Source: Escherichia phage EC100
Reading direction: 5' to 3' (one strand)
DNA length: 64,000 nt
Sequence record: NC_105587.1
Part shown: positions 10,231 to 42,777 of the stretch, in pieces
Numbering within the stretch: position 1 is the stretch's first letter
How the letters are laid out: each line of letters begins with the position of its first letter
The notes under the pieces: generated by a model
What the model saw: only the letters and a program-made list of their open reading frames with translations
Told to the model about the DNA's origin: nothing
Databases searched by the model: none
Position numbers and translations under genes: made by a program

Positions 10231-10869
10231 TTACTCTACTTCAATAAAGGTAGAGGCGTTAGACTCGGACAGAACAAAGTCAACATTTGTTGCAAAGTCC
10301 TGGTATTCCTCGTCATGCTGCTTAATCAGCTTCTCCAGTTCCAGCGGATCAATCAAGAATGGAGTATTCTTGAGTTCCAGCAGGTTGAGCTGCATTTTAA
10401 CTTCATCTTCGGAAGTTTTCTTATCGCGGGTAGCCATGCTATCCTGCAAACGCTCGTATTTAGCATCAAACTGTGCTTTCTGCGTATTAAACTTAACCGT
10501 AGCGGCATGGAACTGCTTACGCATGTTAGCCAGCAGTTGAGCTTTAAGTTCCATACAACGCTTAGCTTCAATTGCTTCCGCAACAGTCATCTTACGAGAA
10601 CCGATCTCAACGATTGTTTCTGCATTGCTCTTAATCAGAGCAGCTTTGATACGATCACGCTGGGACATCATATCCAGCAGAGACTGGAAATCTGTCTTAA
10701 TACGCTCAGATAAATCAGCTACTTCGATTGCAGCACCAACTACAACCTGGTTTTTATCCTTACCTTCACCAACAGCGATCAGAAGCTGCTGTTCAGTAGC
10801 TTTACGGATTTTAGCTTCCAGAGATTTGATAGTTGCTAGAGCGCGAGTTTTAGAAATACGAGTAGTCAT
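10231..10869 (-). CDS. hypothetical coiled-coil protein, likely abundant (212 aa)
   Basis: AAGGAAG ribosome-binding site; E. coli-optimal codon usage; no catalytic motif. Confidence 0.55.
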   Translation of the reverse strand: MTTRISKTRALATIKSLEAKIRKATEQQLLIAVGEGKDKNQVVVGAAIEVADLSERIKTDFQSLLDMMSQRDRIKAALIKSNAETIVEIGSRKMTVAEAIEAKRCMELKAQLLANMRKQFHAATVKFNTQKAQFDAKYERLQDSMATRDKKTSEDEVKMQLNLLELKNTPFLIDPLELEKLIKQHDEEYQDFATNVDFVLSESNASTFIEVE

Positions 10870-30692: not shown

Positions 30693-31103
30693 ATGACTAC
30701 TCCAACTCAGTGGACTGATGAACTGTTTGAAAAAATGTCTTCCGAATATGTTGCTCGTATGGAGCAATTCCCAGAGGATGAACGTCCGGGCGTTAGCATG
30801 GAAATTGTTAGTGAAATTGCCCAGGAAAATGGTGTAACTCCGAACGGTTTTCGTATGAAGCTGACTAAAGCAGGTTTGTATATCAAGAAAGCTGCTGGTT
30901 CTACTTCTAAATCTAGCGCATCTACTGGAGAAAAAGCTTCCGGTGGTTCTCGTACCTCCAAAGCTCAAGCCCATGCCGACCTTCGTTCAGCGTTCTCTGA
31001 TGCTGGCTTAGCACCAGATTTTCTGGATGATGCAATTATCGACAAATTGACCGGTAAAGCGGCTGCTCATCTGGCAGAAGCAATCCGAGCTATCACTAAG
31101 TAA
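30693..31103 (+). CDS. hypothetical protein, likely abundant (136 aa)
   Basis: T5-class promoter (30606-30634) and AAGGA ribosome-binding site; E. coli-optimal codons; Ser/Thr/Ala-rich linker. Confidence 0.5.
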   Translation: MTTPTQWTDELFEKMSSEYVARMEQFPEDERPGVSMEIVSEIAQENGVTPNGFRMKLTKAGLYIKKAAGSTSKSSASTGEKASGGSRTSKAQAHADLRSAFSDAGLAPDFLDDAIIDKLTGKAAAHLAEAIRAITK

Positions 31104-31881: not shown

Positions 31882-32853
31882 ATGACCAATGTAAAAGAAT
31901 TTATTAAACGCTGTCAAGAAGCATATTATCAAGGCATGTCTTTAATCTCTGATGAAGAATATGATCGCCTGGTAAAACGCTTCCCGTTAGAGGAAGAGAT
32001 CGGGCCTAAGGGTGATATTCCACACCTATATCGTATGTATTCTTTACAGAAAGTTTATTATAACCGTGGGGATAAACCACCATTTAATCCTTTAGGTCAG
32101 GTAGAAACTGATAAGTTAGATGGTTGTGCAATTTCTCTGCTATATATTAACGGTGAATTTGTTCAAGCATTAACCCGTGGTAATGGTATTCTGGGAAATG
32201 ATGTAACAAGCAACGTAAGATTGCTGAACATTCCTAAAAAGATTTCCCAAAAAGTACCTACTCAAATCACTGGTGAAGTTCTAATTACAAAAGAAGTAGA
32301 AAATAAACGTAACTTTGCCTCTGGTGCTATTAACCTCAAAGATAGTGATGCTTTCGTACAACGCATTGGAGAAGGCGGTTTAATCTTTGTTGCTTACGGT
32401 ATCCAATGTTCTGCTGAATCTGTAGGTATTACAGAAGCATATTTAAAAGATATGCTTTGGCTAGAGAAGGAGAACTTCTTAACAGTTGTTAATGTGCGTT
32501 CCTTTTTTAAATGGATTCCTACGGACGGTAAAGTTGTTCGTATTAATGACAATAACAAATTCTTCCGTGAAGGCTGGACTAATAAATTCCCTCGTGGAGC
32601 ATTCGCCATTAAAGAGGATGAAGAAGGCGAAATTACAACTCTTACTAAAGTTGAATGGCAGGTAGGGGCTTCTGGTAAAGTAACTCCAGTTGGTTATTTC
32701 GAACCGGTAATTATTGATGATGCTACAATTGTTAAAGCGACTCTTAATAACGTTGATTATATTAACTCTCTTGATCTAGAGATCGGTTGCCAGATTCGAG
32801 TGATTCGTGCTGGTGGTGTAATCCCGTGCATAGTAGAGCGAGTATACGATTAA
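31882..32853 (+). CDS. NAD-dependent DNA ligase, N-terminal adenylation/OB part (split gene)
   Basis: LigA-type adenylation block KLDGCAISLLYINGEFVQALTRGNG; own T5-class promoter upstream. Confidence 0.8.
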   Translation: MTNVKEFIKRCQEAYYQGMSLISDEEYDRLVKRFPLEEEIGPKGDIPHLYRMYSLQKVYYNRGDKPPFNPLGQVETDKLDGCAISLLYINGEFVQALTRGNGILGNDVTSNVRLLNIPKKISQKVPTQITGEVLITKEVENKRNFASGAINLKDSDAFVQRIGEGGLIFVAYGIQCSAESVGITEAYLKDMLWLEKENFLTVVNVRSFFKWIPTDGKVVRINDNNKFFREGWTNKFPRGAFAIKEDEEGEITTLTKVEWQVGASGKVTPVGYFEPVIIDDATIVKATLNNVDYINSLDLEIGCQIRVIRAGGVIPCIVERVYD

Positions 32854-32903
32854 TACATAACCCTTTGCTACCCATCTACCATATCGGAATTATAAAGTGG
32901 TTA

Positions 32904-32932
32904 TTGACATTTTCGCCGCTTAGGTATATACT
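32904..32932 (+). promoter_or_regulatory. sigma70-type promoter (TTGACA, 17 bp, TATACT) between the ligase halves
   Basis: TTGACATTTTCGC core identical over 13 nt to the 4757 element. Confidence 0.45.
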
Positions 32933-32996
32933 ATTATCATTCAGTTGAGGGATAGAAAGTTATGGCGAGGGTAAGCAAAGTTAGTTAAAATTGTAG

Positions 32997-33025
32997 TTGC
33001 TAAATGCTTAAATACTTGCTATAAT
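32997..33025 (+). promoter_or_regulatory. T5 early-class promoter upstream of the ligase C-terminal gene
   Basis: TTGCTA, 17 bp, TATAAT followed by ATTTATATAAATT and the AGGAAG ribosome-binding site. Confidence 0.6.
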
Positions 33026-33055: not shown

Positions 33056-33835
33056 ATGAAAATCGAAATTCCAACACAATGTCCCTCTTGTGGTTCTAAG
33101 CTAGATCTTGTCAACGGACAATTATTCTGTCGTAATAAGTCCAACTGTCCAGCGCAATCAAGTAAGTTAATTGAGAACTTCTGTTCAAAAATGAAGTTAA
33201 AGGGCTTTGGCCCAAAAACTATTGAGAAGCTGGAGCTGACGAAGATTTCAGAACTATTTTACCTAACCGAAGAAGATTTGGTTAGAGCCGTGGGTAGCAA
33301 GGTTGCCGCTAAGTTAATTAGCGAATTAAATACTAAAGTTCGCGGAGACATTGACTTTGGTTCAGTTCTCGGTTCTTTAGGAATCCCTCTAATTGGAGAG
33401 GTTGCAGCAAAGAAATTGTCCCAAAATTGCACCAGTTTTCAAGATGTGAAGGCTGACGGCAAGGCTGGAGAAAACTATAAAGCCTGGCTAAATTCCCCAC
33501 AAGGCAAGGATGTTATCGAATTACCGTGGAAATTCACAACTGGTATTAAAGGTGCTAAAGCTGAGGTCATCATTACTGATGGTCTAGTAGCCCAGCCAAA
33601 TGGAATCGCGGTGTGTATTACCGGGTCTTTGCAAGATTTTGCAAATCGAACGGATGCAACAAACTATTTAGAAGGTCTAGGATATACGGTTAAGAAATCC
33701 GTTACCAAAGACGTCAAATACCTAATCTGTGAGGATGAATCTAAGCGTTCTTCCTCATCTTATAAGAAAGCCGAAACGAATGGGATAGAAATCCTGTCGA
33801 TTAAAGAACTATTGGAGAAAAATAATAATGTCTAA
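33056..33835 (+). CDS. NAD-dependent DNA ligase, C-terminal zinc finger/HhH/BRCT part (split gene)
   Basis: Zinc finger CPSCGS...C...C, helix-hairpin-helix region, BRCT-like C-terminus; AGGAAG ribosome-binding site and own promoter. Confidence 0.75.
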   Translation: MKIEIPTQCPSCGSKLDLVNGQLFCRNKSNCPAQSSKLIENFCSKMKLKGFGPKTIEKLELTKISELFYLTEEDLVRAVGSKVAAKLISELNTKVRGDIDFGSVLGSLGIPLIGEVAAKKLSQNCTSFQDVKADGKAGENYKAWLNSPQGKDVIELPWKFTTGIKGAKAEVIITDGLVAQPNGIAVCITGSLQDFANRTDATNYLEGLGYTVKKSVTKDVKYLICEDESKRSSSSYKKAETNGIEILSIKELLEKNNNV

Positions 33836-34595
33836 ACTGAACTGGAACGTAGAAGGTGTAACCGAGTCTCTGAAAGCAAAAGCCACTGCTCTGGGTGTTG
33901 CTGTAATCTCTCAAGAACAAGTAGCGGCTATCGCTGCTGAACTGGCTGCTGAAACTGGCAAAGACGTTACCGCTCGCTCTGTTGGCTCTAAGCTGCGTAA
34001 AGAAGGTTTCGAAGTACAGAAAGCTAACGAAGTACAGAAATCCCCGTGGACTCCTGAGCAGGAAGCTGAACTGGTTGATTTCCTGAACGCTCATGCTGGT
34101 CAGTATACCTATGCTGAAATCGCTGCTGCTGTAGCTGGTGGTCAGTTCGGTGCTAAGCAGGTACAGGGTAAGATCCTGAGTCTGGAAATGACCGCTTCTG
34201 TTAAACCAACTGAAAAAGCTGCTGCTGTTCGTTCCTTCACTCCGGATGAAGAAACTGACTTTGTTAATCAGGTTGTTGCTGGAGCTACTATTGAAGCTAT
34301 CGCTGCTCACTTCGGTCGTAATATCAAACAGATCCGTGGTAAAGCTCTGAGTCTGCTTCGTGAAGGTCGTATCGCCGCTATGCCGGTACAGGAAACTTCA
34401 AGTGCTAAAACTCGTGAAGATCTGTTAGAAGGTCTGGATCTGGCTAACATGACCGTTGCTGAGATCGCTGAGAAAACTGGTAAGTCTGAGCGCGGTGTTA
34501 AATCTATGCTGTCTCGTCGTGGTCTGGTTGCTAAGGACTATGATGGTGCCGCTAAGCGTGCTAAACTGGATGCAAAAGCTGCGGCTGCTGAATAA
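33828..34595 (+). CDS. abundant DNA-binding-like protein with three helix-turn-helix-like repeats
   Basis: Three repeats (YTYAEIAAAVAGGQFGAKQVQGKILSL / TIEAIAAHFGRNIKQIRGKALSL / MTVAEIAEKTGKSERGVKSMLSR); optimal codons; terminator downstream. Confidence 0.6.
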   Translation: MSKLNWNVEGVTESLKAKATALGVAVISQEQVAAIAAELAAETGKDVTARSVGSKLRKEGFEVQKANEVQKSPWTPEQEAELVDFLNAHAGQYTYAEIAAAVAGGQFGAKQVQGKILSLEMTASVKPTEKAAAVRSFTPDEETDFVNQVVAGATIEAIAAHFGRNIKQIRGKALSLLREGRIAAMPVQETSSAKTREDLLEGLDLANMTVAEIAEKTGKSERGVKSMLSRRGLVAKDYDGAAKRAKLDAKAAAAE

Positions 34596-34611: not shown

Positions 34612-34646
34612 TAAGGGGAGGGGGCTATGCTCCTTCCCCTTTTTGC
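34612..34646 (+). terminator. intrinsic terminator after the helix-turn-helix repeat gene
   Basis: AGGGGAGGGGGC...GCTCCTTCCCCT imperfect hairpin followed by TTTTTG. Confidence 0.6.
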
Positions 34647-34677
34647 ATTTAGAAGGCACGAAAGCGTGCAAAGGAGA

Positions 34678-36150
34678 ATGACCTTGTTTAACGTGCAAGC
34701 TGTAGTGTTGAAGATGCTTCTAGCTTCCGAACAGAAGCAAATAGCATTGGAAACATTCTCAAAACTGCATAAAGATCATTTTAATGACGCTTTCTCCTCA
34801 ATTTACCAAGCCGTCCAGAATTATTATAAAAAATATAACACAATGCCGTCCATTGACGCACTGATGCTTGAGTCTAATAGGAACGCCCGCCTTTCTCAAG
34901 CTCTAGTCGTCTTAGCTAACACTCAAATTCCAGAAGTGAGCATGGAACAGGCACTTGAAGTCCTAGAGGCCGAATATACACAGGATTTATTCCTGAAGCT
35001 TCTAGAAACAGACGTGCTTCAAGATTTAACAATGCTGGATCAGGGAGAAATTCTCAACCGAGTTGCCTCCCTTCACTTAAAATTAGAAGAGAAAGTAACG
35101 AATACTGGAAAAGTATTCAACGCAGATAACATGCGTATTTTCCAGAGAGAAGAAGATACCAAACTGAACTTAATCGCTCTTGGTATTTGTAATGAGTTCG
35201 ACGCTCAAATTGGTTTAGCTCGCACAGAAACGTTACTGCTTGGTGGTTGGCGTGGTACTGGTAAATCCATTATCTGTTCAAACATACAGGTTCAGCAATA
35301 TTTGAATGGAGATATTGCTCCATACTTCTCAATTGAGATGAAAGAACATGAAGTATTTAGACGTAATCTAGCCATGTTAGCTGGTGTATCAGCATTAGCA
35401 ATGCGTAATAATACTCTAGAAGGTGCAGCTCTGTTGAGGTTGGCCAGAACTAGAGCTAGAATGTTTAATGGTGGTGAAGAGCTTTTTGATAACTTCGTTA
35501 AACAGTACACAATGGCTAAGATGAGTGATTTCTACGATATGGAGAGTAAGCTAATAGAGGGATATGAACTACATACTCCTATGATTATTGTTTATGATCC
35601 TGAGCTGTCCATTACAACAGTTGACGTAGAATTAAATAAATTAGTTGCTAGATATGGTGATAAAGTTACAGTAGCTTTACTGGACTATATTAACCAAACC
35701 CGACTTCCAGACTCTAAAACCATTGATATGTATGACTGGAAAGAACAGATGGTTGTTAGCTCGTCTTTCAAATCTATCTGCCAGAAACATAACGTGGCTG
35801 GAGTAGCTCCTTACCAGATCGATCAAGATGGTAGAACACGTATGTCAAAGGGGATTCTTGATTCCGCAGACATGGCTGCTAATCTTAATGCTGCAAAAGC
35901 TGATAATGGTCAAGGTGCTATTATGTTTGACTTCGTTAAGACTCGTTCTTCTGATAGCGTGAAGTTTATGCCTAAAATGAACTGGGAAACTCTGCGAATG
36001 GATAACACTACCAATCTAGCAATGGAAGATATATCTCAAATGGAAGCTGAGTTCGTTATCCCTATTGAGAAGGATAAGTCGGCTCAACCTAAACGTGCTA
36101 AGAAAGACAAAGCTGAAAATTCAACAGGTGAACAGGCCAGCGATATATGA
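34678..36150 (+). CDS. DnaB-like replicative helicase (RecA-fold ATPase)
   Basis: Walker A GGWRGTGKS, DnaB-like FSIEM block; exact start uncertain (ATG 34678 or TTG 34684). Confidence 0.7.
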   Translation: MTLFNVQAVVLKMLLASEQKQIALETFSKLHKDHFNDAFSSIYQAVQNYYKKYNTMPSIDALMLESNRNARLSQALVVLANTQIPEVSMEQALEVLEAEYTQDLFLKLLETDVLQDLTMLDQGEILNRVASLHLKLEEKVTNTGKVFNADNMRIFQREEDTKLNLIALGICNEFDAQIGLARTETLLLGGWRGTGKSIICSNIQVQQYLNGDIAPYFSIEMKEHEVFRRNLAMLAGVSALAMRNNTLEGAALLRLARTRARMFNGGEELFDNFVKQYTMAKMSDFYDMESKLIEGYELHTPMIIVYDPELSITTVDVELNKLVARYGDKVTVALLDYINQTRLPDSKTIDMYDWKEQMVVSSSFKSICQKHNVAGVAPYQIDQDGRTRMSKGILDSADMAANLNAAKADNGQGAIMFDFVKTRSSDSVKFMPKMNWETLRMDNTTNLAMEDISQMEAEFVIPIEKDKSAQPKRAKKDKAENSTGEQASDI

Positions 36151-41726: not shown

Positions 41727-42011
41727 ATGCTTACAGAGCCTGATGCTCACCAATTATTGGTCGGTCCCTCATTCATTTTGAATGAATCAACTATTGTTGA
41801 TAATCCAAATAAATTGTCTAATAGACAACTGGCAGAATATCTAGGAATTTTAAGTCTACGAAATTATGCCGAATACAAGTTTACAAACGATCCTAGTTTG
41901 GACATACAATATGTTCCAGTATGGATACCACGTTTAGTAATCGACACTAACCCACTAATCGCAATTAACAAATCGAAATTAATCTTTAAAGAGGAAATAA
42001 AATATGGCTAA
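41727..42011 (+). CDS. hypothetical protein (94 aa), start uncertain
   Basis: The frame is open from 41613 but the first ATG (41727) lacks a ribosome-binding site; an orphan GAGGAG site lies 90 nt upstream. Confidence 0.3.
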   Translation: MLTEPDAHQLLVGPSFILNESTIVDNPNKLSNRQLAEYLGILSLRNYAEYKFTNDPSLDIQYVPVWIPRLVIDTNPLIAINKSKLIFKEEIKYG

Positions 42012-42777
42012 GTCTTGGGGCGAAACTACTGGCGGTTCTAACGATAAAATCGAATTCCTGAAGTTCAACAACGGTATCACTCGTGTTCGTATCGTTTCTG
42101 GTGTTCTTCCACGTTATGTCTATTGGCTGACCAATAAAGAGGGTAACGTAGCTCCTTTCGAATGTCTCCGTTTTAACCGTGACAAAGAGAGCTTTGTTCG
42201 TGGTAAAGCTGATCCGGTTCATGAGATGGGCTTCTTCGAGAAAGAGCTGGATAAAGACGGTAATCGTGTTCCGCTGAAACCGAAGAAAAACTATATCGCT
42301 TTTGTTATCGACCGTTCTGATAACAAACTGAAAGTAATGGAAGTCAAGGCTACTATTCTGAAAGGCATCCAGTCTATCATGAAGCAGCTGAGCCTGGCAA
42401 CTCCGTTTGATATTGATATTTCTATCGAGAAAAAAGGTAAAGGTTTCGATACTGAGTATGATGTACAGCAGATTGCTGCTATGCAGTTCCAGATTAAGCT
42501 GCAAGATCCTAACAGTGCAGAATCTAAGCAATATGCTGCAGATGTAGATCTGATCGGTGAAGCTATGTGTGATGAAGATGGCGACATCATTAAGTTCGAA
42601 AAAGTTCCTTCTCTGGAACAAACCTATCCGGTTCCTACCTATGAAGAGCAGAAAGAAGCAATTCAAGCCTTCATGGAGGGTCGTGAGAATAAAGATGATG
42701 ATGCCAAATCTGGTAATAGCAATGCAGGCTCCCAGAAAGGTATTGACACAGAAGCTGCAAGCGATCTGGATGACTAA
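42004..42777 (+). CDS. abundant replication-module protein with acidic C-terminal tail (possible gp2.5-like ssDNA-binding protein)
   Basis: GAGGAA ribosome-binding site; optimal codons; C-terminus DTEAASDLDD; own terminator. Function is inferred, not motif-proven. Confidence 0.5.
   Translation: MAKSWGETTGGSNDKIEFLKFNNGITRVRIVSGVLPRYVYWLTNKEGNVAPFECLRFNRDKESFVRGKADPVHEMGFFEKELDKDGNRVPLKPKKNYIAFVIDRSDNKLKVMEVKATILKGIQSIMKQLSLATPFDIDISIEKKGKGFDTEYDVQQIAAMQFQIKLQDPNSAESKQYAADVDLIGEAMCDEDGDIIKFEKVPSLEQTYPVPTYEEQKEAIQAFMEGRENKDDDAKSGNSNAGSQKGIDTEAASDLDD

Follow-up and report, generated by a model that had tools for sequence, protein, structure and literature searches.

The protein described here is 255 residues long and is encoded by the sole long open reading frame (ORF) at its locus, 33828-34595, which runs from ATG to TAA on the plus strand of a Tequintavirus (Demerecviridae). 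Positions are those of the window, by which we mean the whole 64,000-nucleotide stretch of DNA that was analyzed. Judged by its sequence, the ORF is the ortholog of T5 gene D5, an already known gene and a textbook T5 early gene. The best explanation of the whole, and one we consider very probably right, is that this D5 ortholog is made early and in large amounts and binds double-stranded DNA, that it is built from four helix-turn-helix (HTH) units, and that it works through a mechanism we infer, the coating of phage DNA.

The D5 gene and its relatives

33828..34595, plus strand: D5 coding sequence (255 aa, 27.0 kDa, pI 6.8, 18% Ala)

The product of this ORF and T5 D5 (T5.118, YP_006946.1) are identical at 253 of 255 positions (99%). 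Only D25A and V206A separate the two, both at positions that vary across the family, and no difference in function is expected from either. T5 D5 is likewise 255 residues long and sits between ligB and the D6 helicase gene, with the same promoters upstream and, downstream, a hairpin identical to that of the window. PHROG 323 ('transcriptional regulator, D5-like') matches the protein over its full length (residues 1-253) with an E value of 1.9e-71. The original prediction, made from the letters of the DNA alone, had ventured that this might be the T5 early DNA-binding protein; the identity with D5 and the PHROG match bear it out.

The 768-bp gene is 100% identical to positions 65828-66595 of Escherichia phage EC122 (ON185583.1). 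It is carried by 512 phage records, in 425 of which the identity is at least 95%; the matches listed among the 512 are T5-like phages, several of them labeled D5 or DNA-binding protein. An HMMER scan of 1.84 billion cluster representatives returned 168 D5-family clusters at E <= 0.001. By this sequence count the family is small, and all members with an identifiable source belong to phage records or phage-like contigs. In a library of viral structures, the sole whole-chain match was the D5 of a Vibrio phage (TM 0.69-0.72), followed by other phage multi-HTH proteins with low TM scores.

The T5 record describes D5 as a 'DNA-binding protein; required for DNA replication and late transcription', and its note also mentions a role in the shutoff of expression. 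In the passage of PMC12630848 that deals with it, DNA binding by D5 is credited to McCorquodale 1979. Annotation and cited literature together point to binding of double-stranded DNA. The phenotypes without D5, as given in the literature and the T5 record, are threefold: there is no DNA replication, early transcription stays on and late transcription is not turned on. In virion preparations of the T5-like Yersinia phage phiR2-01, the D5 homolog Gp110 ranked with the top proteins by spectral count (PMC8624392), which agrees with D5 being abundant. We also considered whether the 'phage-encoded DNA-binding protein' of the DRT4 paper was D5, and rejected it; that protein is T5 ORF55.

The labels on the records are varied. 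EC122 and many other GenBank records call D5 a 'hypothetical protein', DT57C has 'D5 protein/DNA-binding protein', and elsewhere one finds 'D5-like transcriptional regulator', 'D5 protein', 'RNA polymerase sigma factor' (Salmonella phage Shivani) and 'single stranded DNA-binding protein' (Klebsiella phage vB_Kpn_3).

Helix-turn-helix units in the predicted structure

A single-sequence Smith-Waterman self-alignment of D5 is marginal (score 75, z 4.6; 1 of 100 shuffles did as well). With a composition so rich in Ala, shuffled sequences score high too, and this comparison was too weak to establish repeats. We therefore replaced it with profile-profile comparison (hhalign), in which a family alignment of 54 D5 members (50-81% identity) was cut into four segments and each comparison was set against 40 column-shuffled alignments. 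All six segment pairs score above every one of their 40 controls (z 4.2-15.1). Segments B (69-132) and C (133-186) match with 96% probability and an E value of 1.6e-9, C and D with 63%, and A matches the other segments with 19-35%. On these profiles units B and C are clearly homologous, and A and D appear more divergent.

The AlphaFold2 model, made with the 54-member alignment, has a mean pLDDT of 94.7 and a pTM of 0.57, the latter being what would be expected of a protein predicted to be beads on a string. The model is all-alpha. Three-helix units occupy residues 11-58, 76-118 and 139-178, and a fourth, at about 205-231, consists of two long helices after a three-residue helical turn (205-207); beyond it come a small hairpin and a C-terminal helix, 240-254. 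According to the model D5 is thus made of four HTH units, not three. The original prediction had counted three HTH-like repeats and had named structure prediction as a way to check them: the repeats are real, their profiles beating the shuffles, and the model shows them as HTH units, but the count was one short. Units A, B and C all open with aromatic-(N/T)-x-E-E (W6, W74 and F/Y137), and this shared start may be where the figure of three came from.

33840..34007, plus strand: HTH unit A, residues 5-60 (helices 11-22, 29-43, 49-58)
34044..34187, plus strand: HTH unit B, residues 73-120 (helices 76-88, 95-101, 109-118)
34233..34367, plus strand: HTH unit C, residues 136-180 (helices 139-150, 155-162, 166-178), by its profile a clear homolog of unit B
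34419..34526, plus strand: HTH unit D, residues 198-233 (helices 210-217, 221-231), matching the HTH part of Sigma70_r4_2
34527..34592, plus strand: conserved C-terminal tail, residues 234-255 (short hairpin and helix 240-254), with the motif DYDGAAKRAKLD

Most of the family-invariant residues of D5 lie within or adjoin the third, 'recognition' helix of each unit, which is the DNA-contacting part of HTH domains. In unit A this helix reads ARSVGSKLRK, with R50, K55, L56 and R57 invariant. Unit B, which has a Myb/SANT-like W-T-x-E-E start, has invariant Q113, G114, K115 and L117; the invariant residues of unit C are G171 and K172, and those of unit D are G223, L228 and R231.

These residues touch on a preprint of July 2026, which reports that the type IX retron Kva2 is triggered by T5 D5 (bioRxiv 10.64898/2026.07.11.737809). 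In that work mass photometry showed purified T5 D5 to be a monomer of 26 kDa, the protein remodeled the retron-Kva2 complex, D5 on its own was mildly toxic to E. coli, and an AlphaFold3 prediction has a D5 HTH binding the stem-loop of the retron msDNA. Mutations in D5 that escape the retron include G53D and G232D. Both glycines are nearly invariant in our 54-member alignment. G53 is part of unit A's third helix, and G232 is the residue that follows the third helix of unit D; a map of the conserved basic-residue helices helps in reading the two mutations. The same T5 escaper also has a stop, W74*, in D5, an odd finding if D5 is essential.

Unit D and the tail (34419-34592) turn up elsewhere as well. 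The module, MTVAEIAExTGKSERGVKxxLSRRGxxxKDYDGAAK, stands alone as proteins of 48-66 residues, and proteins of about 250 residues with hydrophobic, membrane-like segments, some of these proteins with a Cys4 motif, have it at their N or C terminus (P0212, P0229, P0235, P0236, P0239 and P0245 are the proteins that bear it). From these sequences it looks like a mobile module.

Codon usage and the surroundings of the gene

The original prediction had spoken of codons optimal for E. coli, and here the numbers leave it standing. With weights taken from E. coli MG1655 (29 genes for ribosomal proteins and elongation factors, 4857 codons), D5 has a codon adaptation index (CAI) of 0.776, with 77% optimal codons, and ranks first of the 53 ORFs of at least 100 residues in the window (mean 0.369, sd 0.119; z 3.4), a ranking that is the same with Sharp-Li weights. 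Even the reference genes, scored with these weights, have a lower median CAI (0.671); the poorly expressed gsp genes lie at 0.22-0.38. Leucine is CTG in 17 of 19 cases, alanine GCT in 39 of 46, glycine GGT in 16 of 19 and arginine CGT in 10 of 12. Wright's effective number of codons (Nc) is 30.8 for D5 and 42-56 for ligA, ligB, D6 and the primase gene. We gave up Nc as a gauge of expression in the distant relatives of D5, where it is uninformative; all genes are low there because the genomes are very AT-rich. The G+C content of D5 is raised (0.48 vs 0.39) because of the 18% alanine encoded by GCT and not because of GC3, which is 0.34.

The next most E. coli-adapted genes of the window are the D11 ortholog at 42004-42777 (SSB in T5), with a CAI of 0.675, an ORF on the minus strand at 10231-10869 (0.626) and the ortholog of D3, 'DNA binding protein', at 30693-31103 (0.599). 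The orthologs of D11 and D3 are thus both annotated as DNA-binding proteins. Opposite D5 lies an antisense ORF (33801-34310, minus strand) of 169 Ser-rich residues, which we reject as a gene and regard as a by-product of the GCT- and CTG-rich codons of the sense strand.

Around the gene, the following elements can be recognized.

32904..32932, plus strand: sigma-70 promoter-like site between ligA and ligB, TTGACA-17-TATACT (11/12)
32997..33025, plus strand: second sigma-70 promoter-like site, TTGCTA-17-TATAAT with an upstream TG (10/12)
33056..33835, plus strand: ligB, NAD-dependent DNA ligase subunit B, directly upstream of D5
33814..33817, plus strand: Shine-Dalgarno-like GGAG, 10 nt 5' of the D5 ATG, as read from the sequence
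34613..34646, plus strand: intrinsic-terminator-like hairpin, a 13-bp G+C-rich stem with a 3-nt loop and then a T-run, 18 nt past the D5 stop

Counting from the start of D5, the T5 promoter P-K 28b (T5 66366-66440) corresponds to 32884-32958 of the window, and the first of the two sites falls inside this interval; the second falls inside the interval equivalent to P-K 28a. The stop of ligB overlaps the start of D5 by 8 nt (ATGTCTAA). The NAD-dependent DNA ligase is itself split into ligA (31882-32853) and ligB (33056-33835), with a gap of about 200 bp that holds the two strong promoters, and distant metagenomic relatives retain both the split and a promoter in the gap.

The hairpin has a folding energy of -25.6 kcal/mol (z -3.0; none of 200 shuffles was as stable) and is identical in T5 and DT57C, the T5 record having no terminator annotation there. 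Its 5' arm holds GGAGG (34617-34621) and its loop the annotated ATG of the D6 helicase (34627; ORF 34627-36150), and from this arrangement the hairpin could both end ligB-D5 transcripts and occlude the initiation of D6 translation. A further in-frame D6 ATG, at 34678, comes after AAGGAG with a spacing of only 1 nt.

The order ligA, ligB, D5, DnaB-like helicase, primase and PolA is found in EC122, DT57C and T5. In metagenomic relatives whose D5 is 48-53% identical, the order PC4-like, ligA, ligB, D5, DnaB-like helicase, primase and PolA is kept, and so are a consensus promoter before ligB and, directly 3' of D5, a hairpin and T-run, here unrelated in sequence. Since the bracket of promoter and terminator is kept in these relatives, ligB-D5 looks like a conserved high-output cassette.

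Mechanism and its alternatives

How might such a protein work? In the mechanism we propose, D5 would consist of four tandem three-helix HTH units of the type seen in Myb, SANT and the DNA-binding domain (DBD) of GcrA, together with a short conserved C-terminal helix. Each unit would set its third helix, with the invariant basic residues, against DNA; with every unit on DNA, a single D5 monomer would touch the duplex over an extended length. High output would come from the two strong sigma-70 early promoters before ligB, the near-optimal E. coli codons and the terminator hairpin after the gene. Abundant and early, D5 would then coat the phage DNA and affect the access of polymerases to it, and such coating would account for the classical phenotypes, namely the need for D5 in replication, the early shutoff and the late turn-on. 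We infer both the contact of every unit with DNA and the role of coating as the cause of the transcription switch. The four-unit architecture gives a framework for mutagenesis of the early-to-late switch of T5 transcription, for which Klimuk et al. stated that early and late promoters alike are of the sigma-70 type and that the mechanism of temporal switching is unknown (PMC7472727).

The units need not all do the same thing. D5 has a pI of 6.8 and a net charge of about neutral, and unit B is acidic (pI 4.9); some units may therefore bind protein partners instead of DNA. Taken further, D5 might be an array of four readers with unit-specific jobs, in which A, C and D hold DNA and the acidic unit B or the DYDGAAKRAKLD tail contacts RNA polymerase or the replisome. 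If so, D5 would be the missing factor by which the sigma-70 holoenzyme is switched over from the early promoters of T5 to the late ones. The hairpin might at the same time be a dual device, terminating most ligB-D5 transcripts and sequestering the Shine-Dalgarno sequence and start codon of D6, and would in that case set a large ratio of D5 to helicase. The joint reading, with D5 as a four-reader array and early-to-late factor and the hairpin as a dual device, we regard as doubtful.

Comparisons with known folds bear on the alternatives to coating. The best structural match is the GcrA DBD, with Myb/SANT repeats next; the HTH of Tn3 resolvase, the SANT domain of Bdp1, LUX, the Timeless repeat, c-Myb R1 and Tc3 are also among the matches. 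A profile search of PDB sequences found no solved relative of D5, its best hit being a designed engrailed homeodomain (variant 1y66, E 0.0044); by this hit unit A is homeodomain-like. Fold searches with the whole chain gave no significant match in the PDB.

The main live alternative, unlikely as we judge it, makes D5 a GcrA-like, site-specific activator coupled to the holoenzyme: one HTH unit would recognize a DNA mark or a motif in late promoters, a different part of D5 would contact sigma-70 holoenzyme, and there would be no bulk coating. The GcrA match, however, covers a generic three-helix domain of 49 residues, and the window protein does not match Pfam GcrA (PF07750). GcrA of Caulobacter crescentus (PDB 5yiu) has one DBD and a C-terminal domain that binds sigma-70, whereas D5 has four tandem HTH units in its model and no counterpart of that C-terminal domain was found, all that lies outside the units being a 15-residue helix. 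The very high expression predicted from the codons also fits a stoichiometric coat on DNA better than a promoter-specific regulator.

The resemblance to Myb/SANT arrays, such as c-Myb R1-R3 and the DNA-binding domain of Timeless (PDB 6taz/6t9q), is one of fold only. Myb repeats have three regularly spaced tryptophans, of which D5 keeps the first aromatic alone (W6, W74, F137), and the Pfam Myb profile (PF00249) scores 17.6 bits with D5, below its cut-off of 24.4. The fourth unit departs from the Myb arrays in resembling sigma region 4 instead, and unit D is the only one to pass a curated Pfam threshold, with Sigma70_r4_2 (PF08281; 29.1 vs 25.7 bits, residues 204-230). The profile is matched by 48 of the 54 family members, whose remaining Pfam matches are sub-threshold ones to HTH, Myb or homeodomain families. 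From here it is a short step to a sigma factor encoded by the phage, or a subunit resembling one, which would redirect host RNA polymerase to late promoters; Shivani's record carries such a label, and late transcription does need D5 genetically (T5 record). We think it very unlikely all the same. D5 is not a sigma factor because only 27 residues, the HTH part (profile positions 23-49 of 54), match region 4, and regions 2 and 3 are absent: Sigma70_r2 gives no match even at E values up to 10, and TIGR02937 reaches 15 bits where its cut-off is 42.9, on which grounds we reject the label. The remainder of D5 is modeled by AlphaFold2 as three more HTH units and not as sigma domains, and both promoter classes of T5 are already sigma-70 (PMC7472727).

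A replisome single-stranded DNA-binding protein (SSB), as vB_Kpn_3 is annotated, is scarcely credible and the label is rejected: D5 does lie in a replication module beside helicase, primase and polymerase, and its mutants are replication-defective (T5 record), but the label fails because the four-HTH model is all-alpha and has no OB fold, no SSB family matches, and T5 offers other candidates in D11 (annotated SSB) and T5.115 (PC4-like).

The annotation that the gene should carry is D5-like dsDNA-binding protein, in place of 'hypothetical', 'sigma factor' and 'SSB'. Some entries may need a correction of another kind. A 13.6-kb record named 'Listeria phage LM 4-14-1' has a D5 that is 99% identical, and two partial proteins ascribed to 'Enterococcus faecalis' (P0020 and P0039) are also 99% identical to D5; these look like contaminating or mis-assigned T5-like sequence.
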